Of a stretch of 64,000 nt of DNA, positions 1-17,732 are shown in pieces. The notes beneath the pieces are model-generated. The model had not been told where the DNA came from, made no database searches, and was given only the letters and a program-made list of their open reading frames with translations. The position numbers and the translations under genes are program-made. This DNA is from an uncultured Candidatus Saccharibacteria bacterium. Lineage in GTDB: Bacteria; Patescibacteriota; Minisyncoccia; Phycocordibacterales; JACOZG01. Numbering within the stretch: the stretch's first letter is position 1; every line of letters begins with the position of its first letter. Location: the NCBI GenBank assembly GCA_965230925.1, contig OZ246403.1, positions 530,230 through 594,229 of the forward strand. Direction: 5' to 3'.

Positions 1-1179
1 TCGGAGTTCGTGGAGATGTTTGTGGGCGTGGGAGCTTCGCGCGTGCGCGACCTTTTCAAGATGGCCAAGAAGACCGCCCCGGCGATTATTTTCATTGACG
101 AAATTGATGCGATCGGTCGCCATCGCGGTGGTGGTATGGGTGGCGGCAATGACGAGCGCGAGCAGACTTTAAACCAAATTCTCGTTGAGATGGACGGCTT
201 CGAGCCCAATGAGAAATTAATTGTGATGGCAGCGACCAACAGACCCGATGTGCTCGATGTCGCCTTGCTCCGTCCCGGCCGCTTCGATCGCCGCGTGGTG
301 CTGGATAAGCCAGATCTTAAGGATCGCGAAGAAATTCTCGGGATTTATGCGCGCAAGAAGCCGCTCCATGAAGATGTGAACTTGCGCGTCATTGCTCAGC
401 GCACACCTGGTTTCTCTGGTGCCGACCTTGCCAACGTGATGAACGAAGGCGCGATCTTGGCCGCGCGCGAGAATCGTAAACAGATTACGCAATATGATCT
501 CATTCGCTCGGTGGAGAAGGTGATTCTTGGGCCAGAGCGGAAGAGTCATATCTTGTCGGAGCGAGAGAAGAAAATTACGGCTTATCATGAGATGGGCCAC
601 GCCCTGATTGGCTCGGTCTTGCCGCACTCGGATCCGGTGCATAAAGTCTCGATTATTTCTCGCGGTCACGCGGCGGGCTACACGCTCAAGCTGCCGTTTG
701 AAGATCGCAAACTCGAGTCGAAGAAAGAATTCCTCGATGAAATTGCGGCGCTTCTCGGTGGTTACGCGGCGGAACAAATGGTCTTTGGCGATATTACTAC
801 CGGGGCCTCCAATGACTTGGCGGTCGCGACGTACACGGCGCGGAATATGGTGACCAAGTATGGCATGAGCGAGAAGCTTGGTCCGGTGGCCTTCGACACC
901 GGTGGCGAGCGCCATCTCATCAGCACCGGGCAATTGGTGGAGAAAGCGTCATCGGAGGCGGTGTCAGCGCTTATTGATCAAGAAATTTCTAAAATTCTTA
1001 ATGAAGGTCTGGCTCGTGCCAATCAGGTGCTCACCGAGAAGCGCGCCGTCCTCGACGCGATGTCGGAAGAATTAATCAAAGTTGAAACCCTCGACCACGA
1101 AGATTTCGACAAACTTCTCATTTTGAACGGGATTAAGCCGAAGAAGGAGGAAGAGAAAGAAACAGAAGCAGTTGCTTAA
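1..1179 (+). CDS. ftsH: ATP-dependent zinc metalloprotease FtsH, C-terminal part (5' end lies outside the window)
   Basis: The frame is open to the window edge. AAA+ second region of homology and arginine finger are present ([12 protein letters not shown]). The M41 peptidase HEMGHA zinc motif is present (HEMGHAL). Confidence 0.9.
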
Positions 1180-1194
1180 TATATAAAAACAAAA

Positions 1195-1226
1195 TTCCCA
1201 CCAGAGGCCGCGAGGCGTGGTGGGAA
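1195..1226 (-). terminator. GC-rich hairpin (ttcccaccag...ctggtgggaa) between convergent ftsH and peroxiredoxin genes
   Basis: Perfect stem cccacc/ggtggg with extended pairing. On the minus strand it is followed by a T-run (rc of atataaaaacaaaa). Likely terminates the minus-strand gene and possibly ftsH. Confidence 0.5.
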
Positions 1227-1250
1227 CGAAGATTGCTTTGCTGTTGTCCT

Positions 1251-1760
1251 TCACGAATCGTAAATCTCGATAGCTTGTTCGAGGACGGCATGGGGATTGG
1301 CAGCCGCATCAGTAATATTGTCGACAACGTCGATGATTGTGCCATCGAGTATGAGAAGAGTGACCCGCCGGTAGTAAAACCTTCCCTCACAATCGAAGAC
1401 TTCGAGCCCAAGGATTTGTCGGAGCAGGAGGTCCTTGTCTGACAAAAAGTGATACCGGATGGTTCTACTGACCTGGAATCTCTCCAGGGTGGTGAGGTCT
1501 CTCGAACTCACGCCGAAAAGTTGGATTCCTTTTCGACGAAAGTCCTCAGCGAGATCGCTGAAACAAAGGCATTCTCCCACACACCCCACAGCACCGGGTA
1601 TGTCATACCATCCTTGAGGAACCGTATCTCCCGGAGGTATGGCGCCAGGATGAACCTGAAGAATCATTCTTCCGGGAATTTGTTCAATCGGAACTCTAGT
1701 TCCGTCGGTACAGACAAACGACACTCTCGGTAAAACCCGACCAATTAGTGCGTGCGGCAT
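1251..1760 (-). CDS. peroxiredoxin (Bcp/PrxQ-like, AhpC/TSA family)
   Basis: Thioredoxin-fold pattern: PGAVGCVGECLCFSD resembles TPGCTxEACxFRD, and FGVSSRDLTTLERF...HFLSDKD...GRFYYRRVTLLILDGTI matches the Bcp VLGVS.D....F....L.FPLLSD...RaTFvID pattern. Assignment from motif recall only. Confidence 0.6.
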   Translation of the reverse strand: MPHALIGRVLPRVSFVCTDGTRVPIEQIPGRMILQVHPGAIPPGDTVPQGWYDIPGAVGCVGECLCFSDLAEDFRRKGIQLFGVSSRDLTTLERFQVSRTIRYHFLSDKDLLLRQILGLEVFDCEGRFYYRRVTLLILDGTIIDVVDNITDAAANPHAVLEQAIEIYDS

Positions 1761-1875
1761 GAGTAGCCCCTCTCAATGTTCTATATTACCCCGCGATGCT
1801 CTCGCGGTGTGAGGCCACAAGCAATGCCCGTGACATTTCTAAACTAGATCACATAAAGTTTTTTGTCAAATTACT

Positions 1876-1904
1876 TTGAAAACAGTAGCTTTTTTATCTA
1901 AATC
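1876..1904 (+). promoter_or_regulatory. candidate sigma70-like promoter upstream of first SBP gene (TTGAAA-17-TAAATC)
   Basis: Hexamers ttgaaa (1876-1881) and taaatc (1899-1904) with a 17-nt spacer, about 40 nt upstream of the ATG at 1943. Weak match, by eye only. Confidence 0.2.
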
Positions 1905-1942
1905 GGCTATGATTGGGCCATTATTAGGCTAAAGCCAAAGGG

Positions 1943-3067
1943 ATGAAAAAAATTATTTGGATTATCGTTATTGTTGTCATCGTCGGACTTCTCGTTTGGT
2001 CCCGGCGGGGGGGCGAAACAGATAAGCCGGCAAATAGTATTGAACCGGTTAAGCTCGGGGTAATTATTTCTCAAACTGGGGTGGCCTCAGCTTTTGGTGA
2101 GATGTCGAAGTTTGGGATTGAAATGGCGGTAAAGGAGATTAATGAGGCGAGCGGAATGGCTACTCCGATGGTAGAAGTGGTCTATGAAGATGATCGGACG
2201 GATCCAAAAGCTGCTACCGGTCTCTACCAGAAACTAACGAGCATCGATAAGGTTGATGCGATTATTGGCAGCAACTTCGATTTCGTAACGCAACCCATTT
2301 TCGCTTTGGCTGAAACCACGGGTACGGTGGTGATCTCTCCTTCCTCCCCACGAATTCCTGGTGCCTTCGAGACCAATGCTAATAGTTTCGTGATGATGAG
2401 TGACTTCTCAAAAATTATTTCTGAACTCAAGCCGTATCTCACCGGCAAGTCATATAAGCAACTTGGTATTATTCACTTCGCTTCTGCCTTCGGTGCCGAG
2501 ATCACCAAGACGCTCAAAGAAATTAATGGGGGTTTGAACAAGCCAGAAGTGGTAGAAGAAACATACAATCAGATTGGAGGTAACGATTTCCGCACGGCAA
2601 TTCTGAAGCTTAAGACCGCTGGTGTGGATGTTTTGTTCCTCGATATGGCTGGTCCTGATCCCCTCACCTTTGTTCGTCAGGCCAAGCAACTTGGTTATGC
2701 GCCAACTTTGATTGCCGACACGGCAGTTAAGGATTCCCTCGCTGCCGCGGGGGCCGATCAATCGCTCTTTAATGGAGTGGTAGTGCTCAATTGGGATGTG
2801 ACGACAGATACCTTCGCCGCCAAGTTCCGTGCCCTCCACGGTCGCGACCCGGGTAACTCGGTGAATCGCGCTTATGACGCGGTGTATATTCTCGTTAATG
2901 CCGTATTGGCGACCGAGACTTCTCAAGAAATCCCTGCCTTCCTAGAGAAAACTCAATTTAATACGCCCAATGGCGACTTCCGCTTTAGCCCTGAGCACGC
3001 GGCGCTCAATACGCCTGTGGCAATCGAAGTTATTCAAGACGGTAAGTTTACGCCATTAGCAAATTAA
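1943..3067 (+). CDS. ABC transporter substrate-binding protein, Leu/Ile/Val-binding (LivJ/LivK, Peripla_BP_6) family, paralog 1, N-terminal TM anchor
   Basis: N-terminus MKKIIWIIVIVVIVGLLVW (hydrophobic anchor, no lipobox). It is followed by the PBP type-I signature KLGVIISQTGVASAFGE. Length 374 aa. Confidence 0.85.
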   Translation: MKKIIWIIVIVVIVGLLVWSRRGGETDKPANSIEPVKLGVIISQTGVASAFGEMSKFGIEMAVKEINEASGMATPMVEVVYEDDRTDPKAATGLYQKLTSIDKVDAIIGSNFDFVTQPIFALAETTGTVVISPSSPRIPGAFETNANSFVMMSDFSKIISELKPYLTGKSYKQLGIIHFASAFGAEITKTLKEINGGLNKPEVVEETYNQIGGNDFRTAILKLKTAGVDVLFLDMAGPDPLTFVRQAKQLGYAPTLIADTAVKDSLAAAGADQSLFNGVVVLNWDVTTDTFAAKFRALHGRDPGNSVNRAYDAVYILVNAVLATETSQEIPAFLEKTQFNTPNGDFRFSPEHAALNTPVAIEVIQDGKFTPLAN

Positions 3068-3071
3068 TAAT

Positions 3072-4181
3072 ATGAAAAAAATTATTTGGGTTATTGTTAT
3101 CGTTGTCATCATCGGGCTTTTTGTTTGGTCTGGAAGGAAGAAGGAGGGAACGACGCCAACGGGAACTGCTGAACCCTTGAAGATTGGCGCCATCTTGCCG
3201 CTCACTGGTCCGATTGCGAATGGGGGTGAGTTTGCGCGCCATGGCGCTGAACTCGCGCTTGAAGACGTGAATAAAGATGGAGAAAAAGTCCAGGTATTTT
3301 TTGAAGATTATCAATACGACGCGAAGCAGGCGGTGGGGACCTACAACAAGTTGCGTGACACTGACGGGGTGAATGCTATTTTCGCCTTTGGTACGCCAGC
3401 GGGAATGCCGCTTTCTCCGGTGGCCAATCAGGCAAAGGTTCCGCTCCTCACCATTCTCGCCGGCACGAGTTACTCTACGCCAAACGATTATACGTACCGA
3501 GTAGTGGGAAGTGGTAAGACGGATGCGAAAGCCGCGGTGGATGTTCTCGTAGATAAATTAGGGAAAAAGAAAATTGCCGTGGTGTCTCTCAACAATGACT
3601 ACGGTTCAGGCACCTTAGAAGAATTTAAGAAGCTTATTGTGGGGAAGGCTGAAGTGGTTGCGGCCGAGAGTGCGGCACCTGGCGTGACCGATTACCGCAC
3701 CCAATTAACTAAGGTGAAGGCGGCGAATCCTGATGCGATCTTCTTACCCACGCTTTATAAAGAAGGTGGGACAATTATCAAACAAGCGAAGGAAATGGGG
3801 ATTAACGCCACCTTCATGTGTGGTCAGCCCTGCGAGAATCCAGAATTTCTCGCTGCGGCAGGAGCGGCGGCGGAAGGGGCTTTTGTTATGACGCCGACGA
3901 ATCAAGATACGTATGGCTTCGGTACCCGCTACCAGGAGCGATATGGTATACCACCGAGCTATATTGCCTTGCGGAGTTACGATGCGATTAAGATGTTGGC
4001 CGCGGCGGCCGAAGGGTGCCGGGAGGGAAATTACGCGGGCGAGTGTTTGAAAATGAAGCTAGATAGCTTACGTAATTTCCCTGGCCTTTCATTCCCCATT
4101 ACCTTTGACGAGAATGGTGACATTACCGACATGTTCTCGATTAAGGTTGTTCGCGATGGAAAGTTCGTTCCTTATGAATAA
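3072..4181 (+). CDS. ABC transporter substrate-binding protein, LivJ/LivK family, paralog 2
   Basis: MKKIIWVIVIVVIIGLFVW anchor and LKIGAILPLTGPIANGGE motif. 4-nt spacing to previous gene. Confidence 0.85.
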   Translation: MKKIIWVIVIVVIIGLFVWSGRKKEGTTPTGTAEPLKIGAILPLTGPIANGGEFARHGAELALEDVNKDGEKVQVFFEDYQYDAKQAVGTYNKLRDTDGVNAIFAFGTPAGMPLSPVANQAKVPLLTILAGTSYSTPNDYTYRVVGSGKTDAKAAVDVLVDKLGKKKIAVVSLNNDYGSGTLEEFKKLIVGKAEVVAAESAAPGVTDYRTQLTKVKAANPDAIFLPTLYKEGGTIIKQAKEMGINATFMCGQPCENPEFLAAAGAAAEGAFVMTPTNQDTYGFGTRYQERYGIPPSYIALRSYDAIKMLAAAAEGCREGNYAGECLKMKLDSLRNFPGLSFPITFDENGDITDMFSIKVVRDGKFVPYE

Positions 4182-4206
4182 ATTAAAAGTTAATTATAAT
4201 TAAAAT

Positions 4207-5349
4207 ATGAAAAAGATAATTTGGATCATCGTTATTGTGGTAGTGATTGGTTTGCTTGTCTGGGCTGGGAAGGGAACCGATACCACCATGCCCCCGACTG
4301 GTTCCACCGAGCCGATTAAGATTGGCCTCGTTACACCGCTCACCGGTGATGCGGCTGCTTTGGGAGAGTTTATGAAAAATGTTACTGATCTCGCGGTAGC
4401 AGAAATAAATGAAGCTGGTGGGGTGAATGGTCAGATGATGGAAATTATCTACGAAGACGGTAAGTGTTCAGGAGCGCCGTCGGTAAGTGCTACCCAGAAA
4501 CTGCTCTCTAGCGATCAGGTAAAAATTATTATGGGTGCTGAGTGTAGTGGAGGAGTGTTGGCTATGTTGCCGGTGACTGATCAGGCAGGAGTTTTCGTTT
4601 TCTCGAGCAGTGCCACGAGCCCAGACTTGTCTGACAAGAGCCCGCTCTTTGCGAGAACTATCCCAAGCGATGCGAGCCAGGGACGAGTTTTGGCCGAGGC
4701 GGCTATTACCCGAGGGTGGAAGAAGGTTTTTGTGATTCAAGAATCTTCAGATTATGCTCTTGGTATCTTCCGAGCTTTTGAATCAAATTATCCCGCTACT
4801 GCCGGTACGATTACGAAAGAAGAATATCCAGCTAATACGACAGATTTCCGCTCCATTCTTGCTAAGGCTAAGACTGCTCAGCCAGATGCTATGCTCTTTA
4901 TCCCCCAATCGCCAGGAACGGCAGAGCGCCTGATTAAAAACTTCAGTGACCTGAAGTGGAACGTGCCGGTAATGGCCGACGACGTTATTGGTGGTAACCC
5001 TCCGCTCTTGTCTAACTTTAAGGATTCAGTAGAAGGAATGTTGGTAGCAGAGCAAGCCCTCGACCAGACGAATACCAAGTTTCAAACTTTAGACAGTAAT
5101 TACAAGACAAAATACAACAAAGAATTGGTTTACAAGACCTACGGTCAAGCTCAATACGATTTGGTCTACTTGGTTAAAGAGGGTCTCATGAAGTTCGGGA
5201 ATGATCCGATGAAGATTGCCGCTTGGGTGAGAACGGTGGCTGATTGGGAAGGTGCTTCGGGTAAAGTCACGATCGGCATGAATGGCGACCGGATTGGTGG
5301 CCATGTGGTAAGAGTGGTTGCTGGCGGTGTGGTGACAGACGTGAAATAA
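4207..5349 (+). CDS. ABC transporter substrate-binding protein, LivJ/LivK family, paralog 3
   Basis: MKKIIWIIVIVVVIGLLVW anchor and IKIGLVTPLTGDAAALGE motif. Confidence 0.85.
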   Translation: MKKIIWIIVIVVVIGLLVWAGKGTDTTMPPTGSTEPIKIGLVTPLTGDAAALGEFMKNVTDLAVAEINEAGGVNGQMMEIIYEDGKCSGAPSVSATQKLLSSDQVKIIMGAECSGGVLAMLPVTDQAGVFVFSSSATSPDLSDKSPLFARTIPSDASQGRVLAEAAITRGWKKVFVIQESSDYALGIFRAFESNYPATAGTITKEEYPANTTDFRSILAKAKTAQPDAMLFIPQSPGTAERLIKNFSDLKWNVPVMADDVIGGNPPLLSNFKDSVEGMLVAEQALDQTNTKFQTLDSNYKTKYNKELVYKTYGQAQYDLVYLVKEGLMKFGNDPMKIAAWVRTVADWEGASGKVTIGMNGDRIGGHVVRVVAGGVVTDVK

Positions 5350-6216
5350 GTGGACATCCTTCCTCAACTTATACTCAATAGTTTGATTGCGGGGGCGATC
5401 TATAGTTTGGTCGCGCTCGGATTCAACCTCATCTATAGTACGGTCAAATTTTTCGACCTCGGTTACGGCGCGCTCACGGCGGTGGGCGGGTATGCTACGT
5501 TCTTTCTCTTCAAGATGAACGGCTTTAATCTTTATCTCGCGGTCATCGCGGGGATGATTGTCGCTGGCTTCATCAGCTTCCTCGCCGATCGCTTGGTGTA
5601 TCGGCAGTTGCGCGCCCGCAAGGCTTCCGGCATGGTCTTCCTCGTCGCGGCGCTTGGGATTTTCACTTTGCTCCAAGCGCTCATTGCGATTTTCTTCACC
5701 AGCCAATTCCAGACGCTCTTCCCGGCGAGCGCGAGTTCTCAGGTCTACGACATTGGTGGTGCCGTGATTACCCACGTGCAACTGGTGATTCTCATCACCG
5801 GTCTCGTGCTCATGACCTTGCTCGGAATTCTCTTAAAGAAAACTTTGTTTGGTAAAGCGATTAAAGCGGTGGCTGATGATGAAGAGGTGGCGAAGATTGT
5901 GGGCATTAATACCAATACGATTATCAGCGCCGTGTTCTTCATCGGCGGCGCGATTGGTGGCCTCGCGGGGATTCTCGTTGGCTTCGATACCGGGATTGAG
6001 CCGACCATGGGCCTCTCGCTTCTCCTCAAGGGTGTGATTGCCTCGATTATCGGCGGGATCGGCAATATTTACGGCGGTGTCCTCGGGGCTTTCCTCCTCG
6101 GTGTGGTCGAGAACTTCGGTATCTGGAAAATTTCTGGCGAGTGGAAAGATGCGATCGCCTTCGCCCTGCTCATCGTGTTTTTGCTTTTTAGACCTAGTGG
6201 TTTATTGAGACGATGA
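5350..6216 (+). CDS. livH: branched-chain amino acid ABC transporter permease (LivH-like)
   Basis: GTG start directly after the SBP3 stop. The product is polytopic and ends ...LLFRPSGLL, typical of LivH/LivM permeases. Confidence 0.8.
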   Translation: MDILPQLILNSLIAGAIYSLVALGFNLIYSTVKFFDLGYGALTAVGGYATFFLFKMNGFNLYLAVIAGMIVAGFISFLADRLVYRQLRARKASGMVFLVAALGIFTLLQALIAIFFTSQFQTLFPASASSQVYDIGGAVITHVQLVILITGLVLMTLLGILLKKTLFGKAIKAVADDEEVAKIVGINTNTIISAVFFIGGAIGGLAGILVGFDTGIEPTMGLSLLLKGVIASIIGGIGNIYGGVLGAFLLGVVENFGIWKISGEWKDAIAFALLIVFLLFRPSGLLRR

Positions 6217-6261
6217 GCAGGGCGAGAAATCCGAAGCCCGAATATCGAAACTCGAAACAAT

Positions 6262-6630
6262 ATGCCAAGCACCGAAAATCAAAATTCAAAACGGTATGAC
6301 CTTGAAGAACGGACAAAGGCTTTCGCCAGACGCGTGAGGGACTTCGTGAAAGGTTTGCCGAGAACTACAGCCGTGTTTGAAGACAGTAAACAGGTGGTGC
6401 GGTCCTCGGGCTCGGTTGGGGCGAATTATATTGAGGCTAATGAGGCATTAAGTAAAAAAGATTTTCTAATGCGGATTAAAATTTGTCGTAAGGAAGCGAA
6501 AGAAACCGCTTTCTGGTTAGACTTACTAGAAGCGGGCGACAAGCTTGGTGACAGTGAGCGACGCAATTTGATCCAGGAAGCCAAAGAGCTTATGATGATC
6601 TTTGGGGCGATTTTAAAGAAGAGCGAATGA
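6262..6630 (+). CDS. four-helix-bundle protein (23S rRNA intervening-sequence protein / Avd-like family, TIGR02436)
   Basis: 122 aa with the family motifs SVGANYIEANEALSKKDFLMRIKICRKEAKETAFWL (compare GANIAEG...SKKDFI.F..IA.GS..E..T.L). Inserted between livH and livM and flanked by complementary repeats. Confidence 0.7.
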   Translation: MPSTENQNSKRYDLEERTKAFARRVRDFVKGLPRTTAVFEDSKQVVRSSGSVGANYIEANEALSKKDFLMRIKICRKEAKETAFWLDLLEAGDKLGDSERRNLIQEAKELMMIFGAILKKSE

Positions 6631-6703
6631 TGTTTATGATTTCCTTGTTTATAAATTTGAATTTGTTTCGGATTTCGAAATTCGAATTTCGTGCTTTTAA
6701 CTT

Positions 6704-7570
6704 ATGGAATACTTAATTCACCTCGCAATTCTTGTTGGCATCTACTCGATTCTCGGGATTAGTCTCAACTTGGTGGTTGGATTCACTGGCTTATTGAGCA
6801 TCACCCAAGCGGCCTTCTATGGTCTCGGTGCCTACGCCACGGCGATCTTGCTCACGAGCTTCGGGCTTAACTTCTTTCTTGCCACCATCATCGGCATTGC
6901 GCTCACCGCAGTCATAAGCCTTTTGGTTGGTCTTGTTTTGAGTCGCTTCCGCGGCGATTACTATGCGCTCGGTTCCTTCGGTTTCAACATTATTCTCTAC
7001 AGCATCTTTCTCAATTGGCAGTCGCTGACCCGCGGCCCGCTTGGCATCCCAGGCATCGGCCGGCCGAGTTTGTTTGGTTTCTCTTTTTCTTCCAATCTGT
7101 CTTTTCTCATTTTAACTTTCATCTTTGCTCTTTTGACTTTCCTTTTCTCCCGGTGGCTCACCACGTCTTCCTTCGGCCGCGTCCTCAAAGCCATTCGCGA
7201 AGATGAACCGGCGCTTCAAGTCTTTGGCTATCGTACCATTTACTTCAAGCTCGCGATTTTTGTAATTTCTTCCGGCGTGGCGGCGCTTGCGGGATCACTC
7301 TTCGCTTCCTACATTACCTTCATCGACCCGTCGAGCTTCGTTCTCTTCGAATCCATTTTTATCCTCGCCATTATAATCTTGGGTGGCCTCGCCAACCTCA
7401 AGGGCTCCGTCTTGGGCGCACTTTTTCTCATCCTCTTGCCTGAGGCCTTGCGCTTCGTCGGCTTCCCCTCCGACATCGCCGCCCAGATGCGCCAAGTGGT
7501 GTACGGCTTGATTCTCGTTCTCCTCATGCTCTACCGCCCGCAGGGATTGGTTGGAGAATATAAATTGTGA
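6704..7570 (+). CDS. livM: branched-chain amino acid ABC transporter permease (LivM-like)
   Basis: Polytopic membrane protein ending ...LYRPQGLVGEY. Followed by SBP genes and then the LivG-like ATPase. Confidence 0.8.
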   Translation: MEYLIHLAILVGIYSILGISLNLVVGFTGLLSITQAAFYGLGAYATAILLTSFGLNFFLATIIGIALTAVISLLVGLVLSRFRGDYYALGSFGFNIILYSIFLNWQSLTRGPLGIPGIGRPSLFGFSFSSNLSFLILTFIFALLTFLFSRWLTTSSFGRVLKAIREDEPALQVFGYRTIYFKLAIFVISSGVAALAGSLFASYITFIDPSSFVLFESIFILAIIILGGLANLKGSVLGALFLILLPEALRFVGFPSDIAAQMRQVVYGLILVLLMLYRPQGLVGEYKL

Positions 7571-7582
7571 TAAGGTAAAAAT

Positions 7583-8707
7583 ATGAAGAAACTCGTTTGG
7601 CTTATCGTTATCGTAGTAGTAATTGGTCTCATTGCTTGGGCGAGTACCAAATCCGAACCATCGATTACGGGCGAGACAATTAAGATCGGAGCCGTGTTGC
7701 CGATGACCGGAGCTGGGGCGGCGTATGGCGAGGATCAGAAGAGGGCAATTTCTTTGGCTGTAGAGGAGATCAATGCTGCTGACGGAATTGGTGGCCGGTT
7801 ACTTGAGGTAATTTACGAAGATGACCAAACTGATCCGAAGTTCTCGGTGTCAGCGGCACAAAAGTTGATTAATGTTGATGGGGTCAAAGTAATCATTGGT
7901 GGTGTCTGGGATCATTTGGCAAATGCTATTGCCCCAGTTATTGATCAAGAGAAAATTGTTTTGATCAGTCCATCAGTAAATGCGGACACGGTTGGTATCT
8001 CAAGCCCGTACTTTTTCATGACCTATCCGCCAGTGGCGAGTACTCGTCCGGCATTCGAAAAATTTTTAGCAAAATTTCCAAATGCCAAGGTGGTGACTAT
8101 GACTTGGAACAATAACTGGGGTCTCGGTAATGCGAAAGTTTTTAAAGAAGCGGTGGCGAAAACGGGTGGGCAGGTGGTGAAGGAAATCGTTTTGACGAAG
8201 CCAGATGGGAATGATATCCAACGCGAACTTACCTTACTCGCTCCACTGAATCCGGACATTATCTTCACGGTAATGAATTTCAGCGACACGGCTGTGTTTG
8301 CCCGAAAGAAGAGCGAATTGGGAATCAAGGCCACAGCCCTCAATCACTATAATCTAGCAACGGCATATCTCAACGGCCAAATTCCTAATGAATTTATGGA
8401 AGGGTTGTATGTATTTAAAAATTCTCCCTCGAGCACTGAGTTTGTCGAGAAATATAAGAACCGCTATCAGATGGAACTCCAAATTCCTGATGCCGACTCG
8501 GCCTACGACGCTGTTCAAGTAATTAAACTTGCGCTCGAGAATAATGAGGGTGATTACAGCGCCGAAACCTTAATGTCAGGAATTCATGCGATTAAGAATT
8601 ATCAAGGCGCTTCAGGTTTGATCGACTTCAGCCAAACCAATTACACCGAGAACAAAAAACCAGTGCTTGAATTATTCCAAGGTGGTAAATTTGTGGAAAT
8701 AAAATGA
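7583..8707 (+). CDS. ABC transporter substrate-binding protein, LivJ/LivK family, paralog 4
   Basis: MKKLVWLIVIVVVIGLIAW anchor and IKIGAVLPMTGAGAAYGE motif. Confidence 0.85.
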   Translation: MKKLVWLIVIVVVIGLIAWASTKSEPSITGETIKIGAVLPMTGAGAAYGEDQKRAISLAVEEINAADGIGGRLLEVIYEDDQTDPKFSVSAAQKLINVDGVKVIIGGVWDHLANAIAPVIDQEKIVLISPSVNADTVGISSPYFFMTYPPVASTRPAFEKFLAKFPNAKVVTMTWNNNWGLGNAKVFKEAVAKTGGQVVKEIVLTKPDGNDIQRELTLLAPLNPDIIFTVMNFSDTAVFARKKSELGIKATALNHYNLATAYLNGQIPNEFMEGLYVFKNSPSSTEFVEKYKNRYQMELQIPDADSAYDAVQVIKLALENNEGDYSAETLMSGIHAIKNYQGASGLIDFSQTNYTENKKPVLELFQGGKFVEIK

Positions 8708-9801
8708 AGAAATTTATCTGGATCATCGTCATTCTCGTTGTGCTCGTTTTACTTTTCTTAACCAATGTAAAACCTCAATCACCGACTTCTGATGGGCCAA
8801 TTAAAATCGGAGCAATTCTCCCTTTGTCGGGAGATTTTGGATCAATTGGGGAGGAGATTAGACGAGGAGCGGAACTGGCGGTTGAGGAACTTGGTAAACA
8901 GGGGAAAGAAATTATTTTAATCAGCGAAGATGACCAGTTTTTGCCAGTGAGAGCAGCTTCGGCAGCCAACAAATTAGCGGTGATTGATAAAGTGGACGCA
9001 GTGTTTACCGCCGTTGGCGAAGAGGCGCGGCCAGTTACCAAAATATTTAATGACAACAAAGTTCCTCTGCTGGTGGCCTTTGATAGTAATGAAGAACTGA
9101 AAAAGTCTGGTGACTACATTTTTAGTATCGGTTTCGGGACAGAAGCAAATGGAGAAAAGTTGGCTACCTATACTTATAACACGTTGGGTCTAAAGAAGAT
9201 CGCTGTTTTGAGTCATGTGGATAATGTGGCAGATATTTTATCCGAGGCGTTCAAAAACAAATTCACTCAACTGGGAGGGACAATCAGTTCTCACGATCGT
9301 ATTCAGACCACCGAAGACAATTTCCGTACCTATATTGTGAAGGTGAAAGCAGATCAACCCGATGGAGTGTATTTTGTGTTCCTTCCTCCCAGTAATGAAA
9401 TATTTCTGAAACAAACCGGTCAGCTTGGGCTAAAGACCACCCTCTTGGGCAGTGATGCCATCCAAAAGTTTGAGATTGAGAATGCTGGTCCAGCGGCAGA
9501 AGGCCTTATCTTTACAGGCTTTTATGTTGAGGATGAGGAAGGAATTACTCAGTTATACAAGAACAAGTTTGGTAAAGAGCCAGACAATCCGGCCTTTGTG
9601 GCTTCCGGCTACGATTCAATTATTACTCTGGCCGCTGGGAAAACTATTGCCAATGAAGAAAAGATTACGTTGCGAGAGGCGTTGATGCGCGTTAGCACCA
9701 ATGAGACCACCTTCCCAGTAAACATGAACGGCACCCAATTTTCTGAAAGGCTAGAAAAGATTTATAAAGTTACTAACGGCGAATCCCAAGTGATCGAATA
9801 G
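8704..9801 (+). CDS. ABC transporter substrate-binding protein, LivJ/LivK family, paralog 5
   Basis: ATGA overlap with previous gene. MKKFIWIIVILVVLVLLF anchor and IKIGAILPLSGDFGSIGE motif. Confidence 0.85.
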   Translation: MKKFIWIIVILVVLVLLFLTNVKPQSPTSDGPIKIGAILPLSGDFGSIGEEIRRGAELAVEELGKQGKEIILISEDDQFLPVRAASAANKLAVIDKVDAVFTAVGEEARPVTKIFNDNKVPLLVAFDSNEELKKSGDYIFSIGFGTEANGEKLATYTYNTLGLKKIAVLSHVDNVADILSEAFKNKFTQLGGTISSHDRIQTTEDNFRTYIVKVKADQPDGVYFVFLPPSNEIFLKQTGQLGLKTTLLGSDAIQKFEIENAGPAAEGLIFTGFYVEDEEGITQLYKNKFGKEPDNPAFVASGYDSIITLAAGKTIANEEKITLREALMRVSTNETTFPVNMNGTQFSERLEKIYKVTNGESQVIE

Positions 9802-9814
9802 AGTTATAAAAAGT

Positions 9815-10909
9815 ATGAAAAAATTAATCTGGATCGTCATTATCTTAATAATCCTTGGGGCGATTTGGTTTGTGGTTGGTAAACAAGAACCAGTGACTTC
9901 TGGTGAATCCATTAAGCTTGGTGTTATTGTCGGTACGAGTGGTCAATACGCTCCAGCCGGGGAGGCTTATGTCAAAGGTTTTAATTTGGCTTTAGAGCAA
10001 TGGAATAATTCTTCCCAAACACCTAAATTTGAAGCTGTTTTCGAAGATGATGGATTTGAAGCCGTAAAGGGATTATCGGCCTACAAAAAATTACGCGAGG
10101 CCAACAAAGTGAATGGATACGCTATTCTTTCTTCCTTCACTATTGATGCAGTCTACGATCTGGTTCATCAAGAGGATAAGCCAGTAGCGTTGGGATTTGA
10201 ACAAAGTCGGCCAGCTGAGGCCGATAATATTTTTCAAGTTTTGCCAGCAGCTAAACCGGTTCAGGCTGGCTTGGGACAGAAAATGAAAGAGTTGGGATAC
10301 CAGAAGCCGGCTGCCGCGGTGAGCAATAATACGCCCGTTTATCAAAATTTTTATGACGGCTTTAGAGAGGGTTACGGATCAGAAGTGCAGAAATTTGAAA
10401 TTGGGAGTGATGTTGGAGGGATTCGATCCCAGGCTTTGGCTTTGTTAGCCGCTCGGCCTGATGTTATCGCTTTCTTTATGGCACCCAAAGAGGGTGCTTT
10501 GTTGGTGAAAGAGATTCTAAAAATTACAACCTCGGAGAATCGACCTGATTTTGCTTTTGACCAAAGTGTGCAGTCGGGATCAACCGATTACCAATCTATC
10601 CTTGCCGGCGAACTCACAAAAATTGATGGTAGTCTCGTCTCTATGTCGAGGAATGATCTGAGCGAAATGTTCAAAAGTGCATTCAAAGAGAAATATAGTA
10701 TGGATGTACCATTTGGTGCTGATATGGGCTATAACTCCTTTACGCTTCTCGCGTCAACCTATGATTCTGACCCGAACATTTGGATTAATAATATGAAAAT
10801 GGCTCGTATCGCAGGCTCGGATGGTGAGATTTATTTTGATGAAAATGGTCTCAGAGTACCAAACATATTTTTTGGTACCATAAAGAACGGTCAGGTTCTT
10901 ACTCAGTAA
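9815..10909 (+). CDS. ABC transporter substrate-binding protein, LivJ/LivK family, paralog 6
   Basis: MKKLIWIVIILIILGAIWF anchor and IKLGVIVGTSGQYAPAGE motif. Confidence 0.8.
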   Translation: MKKLIWIVIILIILGAIWFVVGKQEPVTSGESIKLGVIVGTSGQYAPAGEAYVKGFNLALEQWNNSSQTPKFEAVFEDDGFEAVKGLSAYKKLREANKVNGYAILSSFTIDAVYDLVHQEDKPVALGFEQSRPAEADNIFQVLPAAKPVQAGLGQKMKELGYQKPAAAVSNNTPVYQNFYDGFREGYGSEVQKFEIGSDVGGIRSQALALLAARPDVIAFFMAPKEGALLVKEILKITTSENRPDFAFDQSVQSGSTDYQSILAGELTKIDGSLVSMSRNDLSEMFKSAFKEKYSMDVPFGADMGYNSFTLLASTYDSDPNIWINNMKMARIAGSDGEIYFDENGLRVPNIFFGTIKNGQVLTQ

Positions 10910-10912
10910 TTT

Positions 10913-11644
10913 ATGCCCACGCTGCAGACAAAAAATGTGGTGAAGCGTTTTGACGGGGTCCATGCGGTGGATCATCTTTCGGTTGAGTTCCGGCCCGGGG
11001 AAATTACGGGGATCATCGGTCCCAATGGCTCGGGCAAGTCGACTTTGATTAATACTCTCACTGGGATGATCCCGCTCGATGGCGGTGTAGTGAAAATTGC
11101 CGATACCGGGCTTGAACGGATTGAGGCCTTCGACGTTATTAATTACGGCATTACCCGCACCTTCCAAGACGTGCGACTCTTTGAGCAAATGCCGGTGCTC
11201 GACAATGTTCTGGTGGTGCTCACCGAGCGGCAGGTTTTTGCCTCGCTCTTCGAGCGTCATAGGGCTTTCCACCTCGAGCAGGCCGAGGCGGTGCTCACTC
11301 GTGTGGGTCTCTGGGGTAAGCGCCATGAACTGGCCGCCAATCTCTCCTACGGCCAGCGCAAGCTCCTCGAGATCGCCCGAGCGCTTGCGATGAAGGCCGA
11401 GATTTACTTTTTCGACGAGCCCTTTGCCGGTCTCTTCCCCGAGATGGTGAAGACGGTGGTGGTGGTGCTCCAGGAGTTGCGCGCGGCGGGGAAAGCGATT
11501 ATTCTCGTAGAGCACAATATGGACTTGATCCGCGAGCTTTCCGATCGGGTGATCGTGATGGATAGCGGTAAGCTCCTCGCCGAGGGTGAGCCAGAAGCGG
11601 TGCTGAAGCGGCCGGAAGTAATAGAGGCTTATTTAGGAGAATAA
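10913..11644 (+). CDS. livG: branched-chain amino acid ABC transporter ATP-binding protein (LivG-like)
   Basis: Walker A GPNGSGKST, ABC signature LSYGQRKLLEIARAL, Walker B IYFFDEP, H-loop VEHNM, and a C-terminal ...IEAYLGE. Confidence 0.85.
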   Translation: MPTLQTKNVVKRFDGVHAVDHLSVEFRPGEITGIIGPNGSGKSTLINTLTGMIPLDGGVVKIADTGLERIEAFDVINYGITRTFQDVRLFEQMPVLDNVLVVLTERQVFASLFERHRAFHLEQAEAVLTRVGLWGKRHELAANLSYGQRKLLEIARALAMKAEIYFFDEPFAGLFPEMVKTVVVVLQELRAAGKAIILVEHNMDLIRELSDRVIVMDSGKLLAEGEPEAVLKRPEVIEAYLGE

Positions 11645-11653
11645 TTTTTTAAT

Positions 11654-12739
11654 ATGAACAAAATCATTGGTTGGATTGTTGCGGTCATTCTGGTCGGTAT
11701 TATTGCCTGGACATTTGTTGGCAAAGATCAGCCGGCGGCAAACGGCTTTAATCTAGGACTAATTAGTATTTTGAGCGGGGATTATGCCGTGGTGGGAGAA
11801 AATATTCGCAATGGTGTGATTTTAGCTAGTGAAGAATACAATCAGGCTCATCCAGATGCCCAAATTAAACTTGTTACAGAAGACGATGGATTTAATGGTG
11901 GTAAGGGTTTGAGTGCCTATCGGAAAATGACCACGGTCGACAACATTGATGCGTTGATTAATGTTTCTACACCAACTATTGATGCAATTTACGAAGCGGT
12001 GACGGCGACGAAGTTACCGGTGATCCAGCTCGGTGAACAAGGCCGTGAGCCGAGTGATGATAATGTGATTGGTATCTTTCCGAGTAGTATTGCTTCGGAA
12101 TATGACTACGGTGTTTATCTGAGGAATAAAGGGATCACCCAGATGGACTTAGTGTATACCAATATCGATGCCATGGTTCGTTTCGTCGATAGCTTCAAGA
12201 AGGGTTTCCAAGGCCAAACGACTGATTTCATCATTCAAGCTGACGAGAAGGATCTTCGAACCCATGCTCTCAAGGTGGCCGTGGCTAATCCGTCTACCCT
12301 CGGCTTGTTCATTGTTCCTCAGCAAGGGGCGCAGTTTATGAAGGAATTTTTGAAGGTGAAGAAAACTGATCCACAGCTTTTCTTTGATGCCAATTTCCAA
12401 TCCGGCTTTTCTGATTATGAGCGGATTCTCGGTGATCTCACGGTCTTAGACGGAACCTTGGTTGGTACCGTAGATTCAACGGTTGCGGATTCATTTAAAG
12501 AGGCGTACAAAAAGCGCTTTAATTCTGATGCCGGATTTTTGGCCGATATGGGGTATGACGCCTTCAACCTTCTCGTTGCTACGCGCAATGCCGATCAGGT
12601 GGCGTGGCTCAATAATCTTAAGAAGGCTAATTATAGCGGAGTGAGCGGCAATATTCAGTTTGATCCAGCCGGCAATCGCCAACCAAAAACGAAAGTGATG
12701 GTGGTGAAAAATGGAGTGATTAGTGATCTAGAGCAATAA
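11654..12739 (+). CDS. ABC transporter substrate-binding protein, LivJ/LivK family, paralog 7 (MNK subgroup)
   Basis: MNKIIGWIVAVILVGIIAW anchor. The product has a PBP type-I fold, 361 aa. Confidence 0.8.
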   Translation: MNKIIGWIVAVILVGIIAWTFVGKDQPAANGFNLGLISILSGDYAVVGENIRNGVILASEEYNQAHPDAQIKLVTEDDGFNGGKGLSAYRKMTTVDNIDALINVSTPTIDAIYEAVTATKLPVIQLGEQGREPSDDNVIGIFPSSIASEYDYGVYLRNKGITQMDLVYTNIDAMVRFVDSFKKGFQGQTTDFIIQADEKDLRTHALKVAVANPSTLGLFIVPQQGAQFMKEFLKVKKTDPQLFFDANFQSGFSDYERILGDLTVLDGTLVGTVDSTVADSFKEAYKKRFNSDAGFLADMGYDAFNLLVATRNADQVAWLNNLKKANYSGVSGNIQFDPAGNRQPKTKVMVVKNGVISDLEQ

Positions 12740-12745
12740 ATTAAT

Positions 12746-13756
12746 ATGAACAAAGTCATCAAGATTATTATCGCCATTATTGTTCTCGGATTCTTGGTCT
12801 GGGCCGTGGGAACAAAGTCGGAGCCAAATGAGCCCGGAGAAAACACCCCGATCAAGATTGGTGTTATCGCACCGCTGACTGGTCCGGTGGCGGATTATGG
12901 TGAAGAGGTGCGCAAGGGCGTAATGGCTGGCGCTCCGGCGAGTGGTGTGGAATTTGTGTTTGAAGATGATAAGTGTGATCCGAAAGAGGCGGTCTCAGCC
13001 TTTAAGAAGCTCGCTGAGTTCGATAAGATGCAGTTCATCATTGGTCCGGCTTGTGGCTCGTCGCAAGAGGCGATTGTGCCCTTGCTCGCCGGGAAGGAAA
13101 TAATGACGGTGGTGCCAGCTGCGGCCTCTTCAGCTCTCTATGCGCAAAGTGGCAATAACTTTTTCAACATCCAGTACTCGCTCCAAGATGAATCCAAGTT
13201 CGTGGCCGAGAAAATGACCGCGCTCGGTTATACCAAGGTGGCGCTCGTGAGTTACGCCAATGCTTTCTCCAAGGCCCATGCCGACAGTTTCCGCGAGCAC
13301 TTCGCTGGCACTATTGCCATTGATTCCGTGATCACTGACGAGAACACCAATCTCGCCACCGAGGTGACCAAGATTAAAGCGGCGCGAGTAGACGCGATTT
13401 ACTCACCCGACATTTCTTTTTTCTTCGCGAGTGGTCTCGCTAAACTCCGTGAGCAAGGAGTGATTGCGCCTGTCTTTTCTACCTATGTAGTGGAGTTGCC
13501 GGCTGTGCGCGAGGTGGTGGCCGATGTAATGTATTCTTACCCCGCCGAGATTGCCGATACCGAAGCAGCGGTTTTTGGTCTCTCCAAGCGCGCGGCGGAA
13601 TTACTTTCTCAAACGGTGCTTGAATGCGAGGGTGCTTACCAATGCGTGCACGACAAACTCACCTCCTCTGGCCCCTTCGACCAAAACGGCATCTACCGCC
13701 GCAGCATGCTTCTGAAGCAAATTAAGAACAGTGTGCCGACCGTTATTAATAGTTAA
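12746..13756 (+). CDS. ABC transporter substrate-binding protein, LivJ/LivK family, paralog 8
   Basis: MNKVIKIIIAIIVLGFLVW anchor and IKIGVIAPLTGPVADYGE motif. Shorter at 336 aa. Confidence 0.75.
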   Translation: MNKVIKIIIAIIVLGFLVWAVGTKSEPNEPGENTPIKIGVIAPLTGPVADYGEEVRKGVMAGAPASGVEFVFEDDKCDPKEAVSAFKKLAEFDKMQFIIGPACGSSQEAIVPLLAGKEIMTVVPAAASSALYAQSGNNFFNIQYSLQDESKFVAEKMTALGYTKVALVSYANAFSKAHADSFREHFAGTIAIDSVITDENTNLATEVTKIKAARVDAIYSPDISFFFASGLAKLREQGVIAPVFSTYVVELPAVREVVADVMYSYPAEIADTEAAVFGLSKRAAELLSQTVLECEGAYQCVHDKLTSSGPFDQNGIYRRSMLLKQIKNSVPTVINS

Positions 13757-13765
13757 CGTATTATC

Positions 13766-14824
13766 ATGAACAAAACAATTGGCATCGTTGTCGCCATCAT
13801 CATTATTTTACTTATCGTCTGGGGAGTGAAGTCGAATCAACCCGCAGCACCCGGAGAAAATACGCCAATCAAAATTGGTGCCGTTTTACCTCTCACTGGC
13901 GGTGCGGCGGCTCTGGGTGAGCCAATGAAAAACGGAATGGAATTAGCGCTCAAAGATAAAAGTAATATCATTGTTCAGTATGAAGACAGTAAGGGGATAC
14001 CTGCTGAGGGTGCTTCGGCCTATCATCGTCTCATTGCTGGTGGAGTGAATGCTGTGGTGTCGGCTTATAGCAACGTGAGTGTGCCGCTTACGAAGATTGC
14101 CGAACAAAATAAAGTTCCGCTTCTGATGTCGCTCGTGGCTGCTGACAATGTCACCAATGAATATTCTTATCGTTACTATGCCACGGCGCAAAGTTATGTC
14201 GCCCCGGCCTTCACTGATCCTGCTTCGCCACTCAAGGATGTGACAGATATCGCCGTGATTTATCGTAATGATGAATATGGTAACTCAGTCAAAGCGCGGA
14301 TCACCGAGATGGCAGCGCAACATAATAAAAAGATTCTTATTGCTGAGCCTTATCAGACCAACGAAACTGATTTCTCTACCCATCTCACCAAGATTAAAGC
14401 AGCGAAGCCACAAGCGCTTCTCTTTGTTGATGGAACTCCAGCAGAAGGGGTGGCGATTCTAAAGAAAATTGATGAGTTAAAGCTAAATCTCTTGGTGATG
14501 GAAACGTCGGCAATCTTCTCTGATCCGGCCGTGCAGAAGCAGGCTCCGTTGATGACTTTTTACACCGCAGCTTTCCGCTTCTCACTTCCCGAAGACAACA
14601 CTGAATTTAAAAAGTTATATATGGACACGTATGGCACTTCACCCAACTTCGGTGCGGCTTTTGGCTACGATATTGGGACATGGCTTGCCGATTGCGTTGG
14701 TCAGGGTTCTGATGTTCAGCAATGTTTGTCGCAAACAAACTCCGTCAACGGCTTAACGGGTGAAATTACCAATATCACTAATCACGAAATTAATCCGCCC
14801 ATGTTCTTGGTGAAAGTGAACTAG
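13766..14824 (+). CDS. ABC transporter substrate-binding protein, LivJ/LivK family, paralog 9
   Basis: MNKTIGIVVAIIIILLIVW anchor and IKIGAVLPLTGGAAALGE motif. Confidence 0.8.
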   Translation: MNKTIGIVVAIIIILLIVWGVKSNQPAAPGENTPIKIGAVLPLTGGAAALGEPMKNGMELALKDKSNIIVQYEDSKGIPAEGASAYHRLIAGGVNAVVSAYSNVSVPLTKIAEQNKVPLLMSLVAADNVTNEYSYRYYATAQSYVAPAFTDPASPLKDVTDIAVIYRNDEYGNSVKARITEMAAQHNKKILIAEPYQTNETDFSTHLTKIKAAKPQALLFVDGTPAEGVAILKKIDELKLNLLVMETSAIFSDPAVQKQAPLMTFYTAAFRFSLPEDNTEFKKLYMDTYGTSPNFGAAFGYDIGTWLADCVGQGSDVQQCLSQTNSVNGLTGEITNITNHEINPPMFLVKVN

Positions 14825-14843
14825 ATTGTGGTAGAGTAGAAGG

Positions 14844-15941
14844 ATGAACAAAACCGTCGGTTGGATTATCGCGATAATTGTTATTGTTGGCGCTTTCTGG
14901 TGGCTCAACCGAGGCCCGATTTCCGGGCCTTCAACGGATGGTCCAATCAAGATTGGCGCCCCGCTGATTTTATCAGGAGATTTTGCCAAGTATGGTGAAC
15001 GAGCCAGACGATCGATTGATTTGGCGGTAGAGAAATTTAACCAAGAACATCCGGAGATTAATGTGCAAGTGGTGTATGAAGATACTCATGCGGATCCCAA
15101 GCAGGCAGTTTCGGCCTATCGAAAATTAGTTGATCTCGATAGGGTTCAAGCTATTGTTGGTCCCTTGTTGCAAGTAGAAATGGCGGCGCTTTTGCCCCAG
15201 ATTCAGCAGGATAATATTCCCGTGTTTAGTATGGCGCCCGTCACCCGTGACTTGCGTGCTGACACTTCGAATCCTTTGGTGATCTGGCCTGACCCCACGC
15301 TGGAGGCGGGGCAAATTGCTGAATACGTTTTTAACCAAGGAGTGAAGACCGTCGCAATTCTTGGTACGCAAGATAGTTGGGAGAATGAAGTTTCTGGAGC
15401 TTTTGCGAGTAAATTTACCGCGCCCGGTGGTACTGTGACCGCCCAAGAAATTGTTTTACCCACTGCAAGTGATGTGCGTTTGGCGGTAACTAAGGTTGTT
15501 GGGACGAAGCCAGAAGCCGTTTTTCTCGGCACGTATTACAAGTTTTTCCCTTTCATTAAATCTTTAAACGAACAGGGTTACAAAGGCAAACTGTATAGTA
15601 TCGAGATTGATACCTATCTCGCTGAAGAAGCGGGGGCGCTCGCGAACGGTTTGCGTTTTATTTCTCCAGACTTTTATACTCCAGGTTTTACCGCCGAATA
15701 TCAAAATCGGTATAGCGAAGTGCCAAGTTTACCCGCTGGCCAATCCCACGACGCCGCTCAAATTCTGTTGTCGCTTATTGCTGAAGGAAAAACAGGGGAC
15801 GATCTCATAGATGCTATGGGAGCCTTGAAAGAATTTAACGGTGTGTCTGGTAAAATTATTTTCACTGATGATCACCGCGCCACCTTCCCGCTTTCAATTT
15901 TTGAGCTCCAAGATGGCCAGATTAAAAAATTAGAAAATTAA
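14844..15941 (+). CDS. ABC transporter substrate-binding protein, LivJ/LivK family, paralog 10
   Basis: MNKTVGWIIAIIVIVGAFWW anchor and IKIGAPLILSGDFAKYGE motif. Confidence 0.8.
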   Translation: MNKTVGWIIAIIVIVGAFWWLNRGPISGPSTDGPIKIGAPLILSGDFAKYGERARRSIDLAVEKFNQEHPEINVQVVYEDTHADPKQAVSAYRKLVDLDRVQAIVGPLLQVEMAALLPQIQQDNIPVFSMAPVTRDLRADTSNPLVIWPDPTLEAGQIAEYVFNQGVKTVAILGTQDSWENEVSGAFASKFTAPGGTVTAQEIVLPTASDVRLAVTKVVGTKPEAVFLGTYYKFFPFIKSLNEQGYKGKLYSIEIDTYLAEEAGALANGLRFISPDFYTPGFTAEYQNRYSEVPSLPAGQSHDAAQILLSLIAEGKTGDDLIDAMGALKEFNGVSGKIIFTDDHRATFPLSIFELQDGQIKKLEN

Positions 15942-16669: not shown

Positions 16670-16676
16670 GTTTTTG

Positions 16677-16748
16677 TGCGCGCTCTTGGATTCGAACCAA
16701 GGACCGGTCGTGTATAAGACGACTGCTCTACCGCTGAGCTAAGCGCGC
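16677..16748 (-). tRNA. tRNA with anticodon UAU (putative tRNA-Ile reading AUA)
   Basis: The rc folds as a cloverleaf: GCGCGCT-TA-GCTC-AGCGGTA-GAGC-A-GTCGT-CTTATAC-ACGAC-CGGTC-CTTGG-TTCGAAT-CCAAG-AGCGCGC-A. All four stems are Watson-Crick. Anticodon loop CUUAUAC gives UAU. No encoded CCA. Confidence 0.7.
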
Positions 16749-17664: not shown

Positions 17665-17687
17665 TAAATTTATCCACTTTCCCAAAA

Positions 17688-17715: not shown

Positions 17716-17732
17716 GTTATGATGTCGAGCGT

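Follow-up and report, generated by a model that had tools for sequence, protein, structure and literature searches.

Intervening sequences (IVSs) in ribosomal RNAs (rRNAs) and the S23p or four-helix-bundle (4HB) open reading frames (ORFs) that they carry have been known since the early 1990s, and their origin, function and spread are unexplained. The IVS in the 23S rRNA of Coxiella burnetii is 428 nt long, is closed by a 28-bp stem of terminal inverted repeats that is cut by RNase III, and contains heptamers (GACAGAT) just before the ATG of its S23p gene; its origin is not known, and for Leptospira a mobile-element origin with an ORF involved in mobility has been proposed (PMC4990558). ORFs of the 23S_rRNA_IVP type were also found in 16S and 23S rRNA insertions of bacteria of the candidate phyla radiation (CPR) (PMC11270868), and 18 such genes in cas loci were read as functional partners of Cas nucleases (PMC3936711). 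Here, we characterized a 4HB gene located between livH and livM in a transporter operon of an uncultured Candidatus Saccharibacteria bacterium (contig OZ246403.1), within a 64-kb stretch of DNA that we refer to as the window. Positions 6217–6703 of the window are, in our judgment, probably an IVS-type selfish element of ~480 nt, in which a single 4HB gene lies between inverted heptamer arrays.

A preliminary description based on the letters of the window had proposed a small mobile element at exactly these coordinates. We scanned metagenome contigs with LivH and obtained 80 relatives, 66 of which had both gene ends on the contig (the loci compared in the analysis are labeled L003, L085 and so on). 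In the closest relative, L085, LivH and LivM are 93.8% and 92.0% identical to those of the window, with a nucleotide identity of 82–85%. Its junction is empty, with the livH stop codon abutting the livM ATG (...cgaTAA directly followed by ATGgaatactta...) and flanks collinear with the window, which sets the boundaries of the insertion exactly at 6217–6703 and bears out the proposed coordinates. The gap between livH and livM is at most 28 nt in about 50 of the 66 relatives, mostly 0–6 nt, and the window thus contains an insertion into a junction that is normally 0–6 nt long. The GC content of the insert is 42.9% compared with 51–53% in livH and livM. The features of the locus are as follows.

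5350–6216, + strand: livH-like branched-chain amino acid ATP-binding cassette (ABC) permease gene (PF02653, E 1.1e-44; partial LivH/UrtB NCBIfam matches), with its TGA stop codon at 6214–6216
6161–6225, + strand: perfect 16-bp hairpin with a 33-nt loop, a 100% complementary inverted repeat with arms at 6161–6176 (TCGCCCTGCTCATCGT) and 6210–6225 (ACGATGAGCAGGGCGA)
6217–6703, + strand: entire insertion, 487 nt, delimited against the empty junction of L085
6217–6225, + strand: 9-nt filler (GCAGGGCGA), the reverse complement of livH 6161–6169, outside the family-wide left arm
6226–6261, + strand: left arm, heptamers GAAATCC GAAGCCC GAATATC GAAACTC GAAACAA(T) up to the ATG (lag-7 autocorrelation, family alignment)
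6262–6630, + strand: 4HB protein gene, 122 aa (TIGR02436/PF05635, 23S rRNA IVS protein family)
6631–6662, + strand: trailer spacer from the 4HB stop codon to the right arm (family consensus TGTTTTGAACATTTG..ATTTGAATTT)
6663–6703, + strand: right arm, inverted heptamers TTGTTTC GGATTTC GAAATTC GAATTTC GTGCTTT (inverted repeats; family right arm GAATTTGTTTCGGATTTCGAtATTCGAATTTCGGATTT), with a degenerate outer unit (TAACTT) that reaches the livM ATG
6704–7570, + strand: livM-like permease gene (PF02653, E 8.6e-47; LivM model NF008450, E 1e-50)

Within the 64-kb window we found neither a second copy of the element nor an rRNA gene, and rRNA genes were likewise missing from 15 related loci with large non-coding gaps. 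The element sits between two permease genes and not inside a 23S or 16S rRNA helix, and its homologs were found in about 80 loci of other genomes, as described below. Apparent junction inserts in two further relatives, L095 and L156, proved to be merely interrupted livH reading frames.

The assignment of the 122-aa protein to the 23S IVS family, made in the preliminary description, was upheld by both family models, with matches well above their cut-offs to PF05635 (E 3.3e-14, 53.4 bits, cut-off 33.8) and to TIGR02436 (E 6.7e-21, 74.6 bits, cut-off 24, spanning 3–108 of 109 model positions). An AlphaFold2 model (predicted local distance difference test score 90.6) showed helices at residues 6–30, 36–60, 65–88 and 94–121, that is, a four-helix up-down bundle. 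Foldseek searches with this model gave 2RLD (template modeling (TM) score 0.76–0.85) and 2GSC as best matches, and a phmmer comparison with 2RLD was significant (E 1.6e-13). The two structures, BT_0352 (2RLD, five chains) and Xcc0516 (2GSC), are pentameric members of the S23p family. The RxxxSxxxNxxE motif published for the family (PMC3936711) is present as R47-S51-N55-E58 in VVRSSGSVGANYIEANE, with S51, N55 and E58 invariant among 29 homologs, while the protein does not have the leading G of the published GxxR motif. Thousands of homologs exist at ~60–76% identity. Differences between homologs per codon position (0.31, 0.21 and 0.61 for positions 1, 2 and 3) indicate that the protein is under purifying selection; the gene is kept in essentially all copies of the element.

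The protein had also been ascribed to the Avd family. One alternative reading is an orphan Avd gene left behind by a diversity-generating retroelement (DGR). The fold is indeed related, with the Avd structures 8UB7 (Avd in the DGR ribonucleoprotein) and 4DWL (free Avd) following next in the structural search (TM score 0.66–0.70), and PF05635 is the Pfam family matched by Avd proteins (PMC10053308). The Avd equivalog NF033474, however, was absent among the NCBIfam matches at E ≤ 0.01, and the best structural matches are of the S23p type. No reverse transcriptase (RT) was found among the called genes within ±10 kb, all of which encode transporter, SmpB, FtsH-like or redoxin proteins. No repeats resembling template and variable repeats (TR/VR) were present in positions 1–20000, where the direct repeats of at least 40 nt were signal-peptide regions of binding-protein paralogs only. 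These two negative results, which match what had been noticed at first sight, show that the element is not a DGR, and we regard an Avd remnant as scarcely credible. By analogy with 2RLD, 2GSC and Avd, the 4HB protein is presumably a pentamer.

We then considered the flanks of the gene, which had been described as rich in cgaaa/tttcg repeats and which we resolved into two inverted heptamer arrays. They share a perfect 10-nt complementary core (6226–6235, GAAATCCGAA; 6667–6676, TTCGGATTTC), as reported before, and this core belongs to a 29-nt inverted repeat with 79% complementarity (6232–6260 and 6663–6691). In the minimum free energy (MFE) fold of 6200–6710, both flanks pair around the 4HB gene. 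Folding of the flanks without the ORF gave −31.4 kcal/mol (z −2.75), a value equaled by 3 of 200 shuffles, and the flank-to-flank duplex reached −37.6 kcal/mol as opposed to about −22.5 kcal/mol for shuffled flanks. Complementarity arising by chance in low-complexity, A/T-rich intergenic DNA would agree with the z value of only −1.46 for the whole region and with the many alternative pairings that heptamers permit. The z value of the flanks points the other way, and the same arms recur, with both sides co-varying, in ~80 independent loci; comparative data have thus already refuted chance, to which we assign next to no probability. Taken by itself, the window provides moderate support, and the comparative evidence is decisive. 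The idea that the trailer sequesters the start codon of the 4HB gene was dropped, since such an effect was weak across the family (−10.1 vs −7.6 kcal/mol) and absent in the window (−5.1 kcal/mol).

For the family-wide comparison, we used one genome per species and obtained 80 loci whose proteins are 59–71% identical to that of the window. Their hosts span more than 12 phyla and comprise Saccharibacteria and other Patescibacteria, Planctomycetota, Desulfobacterota, Gammaproteobacteria, Bacteroidota, Nitrospirota, Verrucomicrobiota, Dehalococcoidia, Omnitrophota, WOR-3 and others. Nearly all of these loci share the same non-coding ends, which define a canonical unit of ~474 nt: a left arm of ~41 nt (consensus (T/A)AAATyCGAAGCACGAAATyCGAAATCCGAAACAAATTCAA) that ends at the ATG, the 4HB gene, a ~30-nt spacer past its stop codon, and a right arm of ~40 nt. 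The lag-7 autocorrelation of the left arm is 0.56 in the window and 0.52 in the family, compared with 0.32 inside the ORF (0.20–0.32 across lags 1–12). Cognate flanks form more stable duplexes (mean −33.8 kcal/mol) than non-cognate (−27.6 kcal/mol) or shuffled flanks (−19.4 kcal/mol; n=79, Wilcoxon p 5e-6), and local alignment of an arm with the reverse complement of its partner covers a median of 34 nt at 81% identity.

The pairing of the two arms was followed position by position in an alignment of 23 arm pairs. Over a 38-pair helix, 79.8% of the cells were paired compared with 50–56% after sliding one side by ±1 column, percentages that are optimistic because only loci whose arms aligned well without gaps had been chosen; the comparison with slid columns and the changes on both sides stay informative. 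At four pairs, G-C and U-A replace one another with both partners altered, in 8–9 of the 23 sequences. Cores of 4–5 bp, in which C(G/U)AAA faces UUU(C/A)G, are nearly invariant and complementary, and the pattern is periodic. In more than 12 phyla, the arms are thus inherited with the element and co-evolve as a part of it. In L003, a second left-arm leader (gaaatccgaagcac...gaaacaaattcaaatg, at 3330–3375) lies past the 3' end of the 4HB gene or overlaps with it and lengthens the protein by ~10 residues; the same arrangement was seen in L016, L029 and L058, and other loci have tandem or partial arm copies. These extra copies suggest that elements insert beside, or recombine with, one another.

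The repeats occur in different types, with units of CGAAA/TTTCG in 46 loci (the window included), CTAAA/TTTAG in 25 loci, and other units, for instance ACAAA (L069 and L083), in a small number of loci. Between the CGAAA and CTAAA types, the units of both arms all change together. This switch is mirrored in the protein: residue 119 (Lys in the window, 6616–6618) is Arg or Lys in 41 of the 46 CGAAA-type loci and Glu or Thr in 21 of the 25 CTAAA-type loci (chi2 64.5; L005–L084), and residues 111, 112 and 122 likewise track the repeat type. On a noisy neighbor-joining tree of residues 12–108, the repeat type required 15 changes compared with a shuffled mean of 20.7 and a minimum of 14, and this weak clustering implies that the association is not simply due to one deep split. 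Avoidance of CpG as a cause of the change from CGAAA to CTAAA was ruled out, since the observed/expected ratios are equal in the two types (ORFs, 1.06 vs 1.03; host flanks, 1.13 vs 1.14). Arginine-guanine pairing is a common mode of base readout. We hypothesize from these sequence comparisons that residue 119 is a candidate protein-nucleic acid contact that would read the G/T position of the heptamer.

Besides the window copy, the livH/livM junction proved to be used repeatedly. Nine other relatives carry inserts of 417–560 nt at this site, each encoding a TIGR02436 protein (E 1e-19 to 2e-35) and each with inverted heptamer arms of its own, for example of the TAAGAAT, TACGGAT, CTAATTT and AGACAAA types. 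The proteins of the junction inserts are 15–68% identical to each other and represent at least six 4HB lineages. In L114 and L161, LivH is 88% identical but the 4HB proteins are only 31% identical, from which it follows that the relationships of host and element disagree. Inserts without an ORF were found at the same junction in L131 (2368–2496, 129 nt, z −5.8), L157 (1039–1133, 95 nt, z −7.9) and L129 (2365–2445, 81 nt). Those in L131 and L157 fold into long hairpins of heptamer-type arms, and the ORF-less inserts look like deletion derivatives, comparable to short ORF-less IVSs of rRNA. In L087, a gene for a 358-aa substrate-binding protein (2368–3480) takes the place of the 4HB element; hence the junction also accepts other insertions.

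The protein most similar to that of the window, P0003 (76% identity), is located at the livH/livM junction of L003, where LivH and LivM are 73% and 76% identical to those of the window. Because the divergence of the element resembles that of its neighbors, this pair would be expected if the 4HB gene were immobile and passed on vertically as an accessory gene within the liv operon, coding for instance for a regulator, with the flanks as its own regulatory sites. Several observations make such a resident gene very improbable: the element is missing from L085 as the closest relative and from most other relatives, the phylogenies of element and host are incongruent, and homologs with 60–70% identity lie beside unrelated genes in unrelated phyla, as with Aconitase and Aconitase_C in Planctomycetota. 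L085 is far closer to the window than L003 and yet empty, which can reflect either a precise loss in its line, gain on two occasions, or an occupied allele that was passed on through recombination in the flanks.

The element is strongly co-oriented with host genes. Across the 80 genome loci, the upstream neighbor is co-directional with the element in 69 of 74 cases and the downstream neighbor in 67 of 71, and 56 of 64 loci have two co-directional neighbors. In 40% of the loci the upstream stop codon lies 36–48 nt from the 4HB ATG, which places it at the left arm's outer end; often this stop codon is supplied by the terminal TAAAT of the element. The next gene begins at a median of ~80 nt past the 4HB stop codon, some twelve bases after the right arm has ended. 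Around the window copy, promoter- or terminator-like signals were not in excess. Such a placement agrees with dependence of the element on host transcription. In Planctomycetota, many copies are located between the genes for the large (Aconitase) and small (Aconitase_C) subunits of a LeuC/LeuD-type dehydratase, and this may be a second junction hot spot. Copies at this site include that of L034 (1690–3922) and those of L008, L013, L024, L032, L056, L072, L079 and L084, with both CGAAA and CTAAA types represented, and two copies of the element occur within 3 kb in L043 and L079.

What is firm is the insertion, the architecture throughout the family, the shared orientation with host genes and the fact that one junction has been used repeatedly. 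As to how the element would work and move, we infer the following course for an IVS-type selfish element. Presumably lacking a promoter of its own, it would be carried on the mRNA of the liv operon, in which both arms could pair to an interrupted stem of ~30–40 bp. By analogy with 23S rRNA IVSs, this stem may serve as a substrate for RNase III, and cutting would yield separate livH, 4HB and livM pieces. The 4HB protein, as a presumed pentamer, might recognize the heptamer motif (CGAAA in the window copy) and in this way control processing or translation, or else aid the spread of the element. Spread would probably combine rare insertion at stop/start junctions with homologous recombination of the flanks between relatives.

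Several results weigh against this interpretation. Cutting of the element RNA by RNase III is taken purely from analogy, the arms of the window are just 79% complementary and, as mentioned, its whole-region fold is inconspicuous. In the 23 aligned arm pairs, the 3-nt spacers between the cores are unpaired in 10–18 sequences, and mismatches show no excess of the G·U over the A·C type (81 vs 104), so that the signature of a plus-strand RNA helix is missing. Selection for an RNA helix rather than for inverted motif arrays is therefore not demonstrated, and the data are accounted for no less well by a short recognition motif arrayed in inverted orientation than by a selected helix. Since the spacers are mostly non-complementary, the long imperfect stem that had been proposed earlier is recovered in the MFE fold of the window but may be partly a by-product of inverted binding-site arrays. 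Residue 119 is only four codons away from the right arm, and physical linkage or shared descent could thus contribute to its association with the repeat type. No mobility enzyme was identified and no transposase is encoded in the element or within ±10 kb; neither target-site duplications nor constant bases outside the arms were found at the boundaries of ~80 loci or at the empty site of L085; and no close homolog that might account for transfer between phyla was found on viral, phage or plasmid records (none in IMG/VR; at most 41% identity in phages and 42% on plasmids).

Part of this evidence would suit a non-autonomous transposon that acts at the DNA level in the manner of a MITE (a miniature transposable element with inverted repeats), with heptamers bound by a transposase encoded elsewhere, the 4HB gene as cargo, the complementarity of the arms as a by-product only and no RNA processing. 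Conservation in the arms follows a periodic motif and not a continuous helix, their mismatches lack a G·U bias, ORF-less derivatives persist at the livH/livM junction (L131, L157), and different lineages inserted independently at this one site. The absence of target-site duplications and of a transposase within ±10 kb of the window copy, by contrast, counts against a MITE, and further findings argue against it: the 4HB gene has been retained under purifying selection in essentially all copies, the co-variation of residue 119 with the repeat motif fits self-recognition better than cargo, and strong co-orientation with host genes is unexpected for a purely DNA-level element. We consider a MITE-like transposon unlikely and an IVS-type selfish element the probable identity of 6217–6703. 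The original suggestion of a small mobile element within the operon agrees with both the empty site of L085 and the family-wide arms.

A feature separate from the arms, which had gone unmentioned before, is the 16-bp hairpin at the livH stop codon (MFE −40.1 kcal/mol, z −6.3). The hairpin spans the final codons of livH including the stop codon; its 5' arm lies within the codons for AFALLIV, and its 3' arm is made up of the terminal 7 nt of livH (ACGATGA) and the 9-nt filler. An analogous 16-nt repeat with one mismatch and a different sequence is present in L003 (CCTTCGCGGCACTACT and AGTAGCGCCGCGAAGG), where nearly the same codons pair with its own stop codon and 11 inserted bases. No comparable repeat occurs at the empty site of L085, and the filler is absent from the other livH/livM junction inserts. 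The hairpin could be a scar of insertion, formed if a 3' end at the target site annealed back through a 5–7-nt microhomology and was extended before it was joined to the element, or it could be selected, for instance as a shield for the 3' terminus of livH RNA once the transcript has been cut. Strong hairpins next to the left arm (at least 9 nt perfect) were found in 9 of 83 loci compared with 8 of 628 controls (Fisher p 3e-5), several of them terminator-like. As a general insertion target such hairpins were rejected, given that their overall distribution does not differ from that of controls (Mann-Whitney p 0.28), a difference being confined to the tail. No Rfam family covers the element, and the 16-bp hairpin yielded only sub-threshold chance matches to miRNA-hairpin models.

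The operon that hosts the element belongs to a liv-type ABC cluster at 1943–16669, which contains at least ten paralogous Peripla_BP_6 substrate-binding genes with near-identical signal-peptide starts (MKKIIWIIVIVV...). Three of these precede livH, three follow livM and four follow the first ATPase gene, an unusual expansion for one operon. The relatives found with LivH come largely from 0.1-µm groundwater fractions, and L085 stems from the Hainich wells. Together with the many binding-protein paralogs, the groundwater origin suggests a Patescibacteria-like host. A tRNA-Ile gene with anticodon TAT is located at 16676–16748 of the window, and an RNase P RNA at 40113–40469 has a bacterial Rfam score of 105.1, barely above the gathering threshold of 100; both are consistent with a divergent lineage with a small genome.

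An incomplete literature search found no published description of heptamer-armed 4HB units at operon junctions, of their empty sites or of the covariation between residue and repeat. The locus offers a clean pair of occupied and empty sites outside rRNA, an element layout that is conserved across phyla, and a candidate code linking residue 119 of the protein to the G/T position of the heptamer, and with these the question of what the IVS protein does becomes testable. It also serves as a warning that TIGR02436 genes within operons, including CRISPR-cas loci, may be selfish insertions and not functional partners. More tentatively, and with some doubt on our part, it is possible that the 4HB IVS units form one widespread class of minimal autonomous selfish elements (~475 bp). 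Their pentamer would read heptamers (Arg/Lys119 with CGAAA, Glu/Thr119 with CTAAA), they would colonize transcribed, cleavage-tolerant spots such as stop/start junctions and rRNA loops, and their mobility would be unlike that of any known transposase, intron or retroelement. If so, the classical 23S rRNA IVS would be one special case, and the scattered "four helix bundle protein" genes of genomes and cas loci would be insertions rather than partners of their neighbors.

Compared with described systems, the element is closest to the rRNA IVSs of Leptospira, Coxiella and CPR bacteria, with which it shares the PF05635/TIGR02436 protein family, the size class (~430–760 nt), an ORF enclosed by terminal inverted repeats, and a sporadic, horizontal distribution. 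Tandem heptamers directly before the ATG are a further likeness to the Coxiella IVS (GACAGAT in Coxiella, GAAATCC in the window). In contrast to rRNA IVSs, the site in the window is the stop/start junction of an ABC-transporter operon and not a 23S rRNA helix, the arms are interrupted and less complementary than the nearly perfect stem in Coxiella, and excision by RNase III is suggested here by analogy only. The element would work like an IVS without being one in the strict sense, as its location is the wrong one.

Correia elements of Neisseria are MITE-type sequences with terminal inverted repeats that lie between co-directional genes, are co-transcribed with operons and undergo RNA-level processing, and their arms can pair in the transcript. 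To our knowledge, Correia-type elements carry no gene, generate a TA target duplication and are restricted to particular species. The window element, unlike these, has a gene for a conserved protein, lacks a target duplication and recurs in different phyla. With transposons of the DDE type and their MITEs it has terminal inverted repeats in common, but not target-site duplications. Avd, the accessory protein of DGRs, has a homologous four-helix-bundle fold and, as a pentamer, binds structured RNA within the ribonucleoprotein of the DGR, whereas the window copy is without RT, TR/VR and an NF033474 match in the ranges searched and possesses inverted heptamer arms of its own. Finally, the 23S_rRNA_IVP genes of cas operons likewise represent this family in a non-rRNA operon. 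One cultured example of such a gene, annotated as four helix bundle and located between csx2 and cas1 on the Pseudanabaena galeata plasmid NZ_CP112878.1 (L165, 1380–2040), is also heptamer-armed, with CTTCnnn heptamers upstream and their complement (nnnGAAG) at the 3' end, and thus 4HB genes reported in cas loci may be inserted elements. In contrast to the interpretation of these genes as Cas partners (PMC3936711), arms and insertion polymorphism suggest an inserted selfish element.

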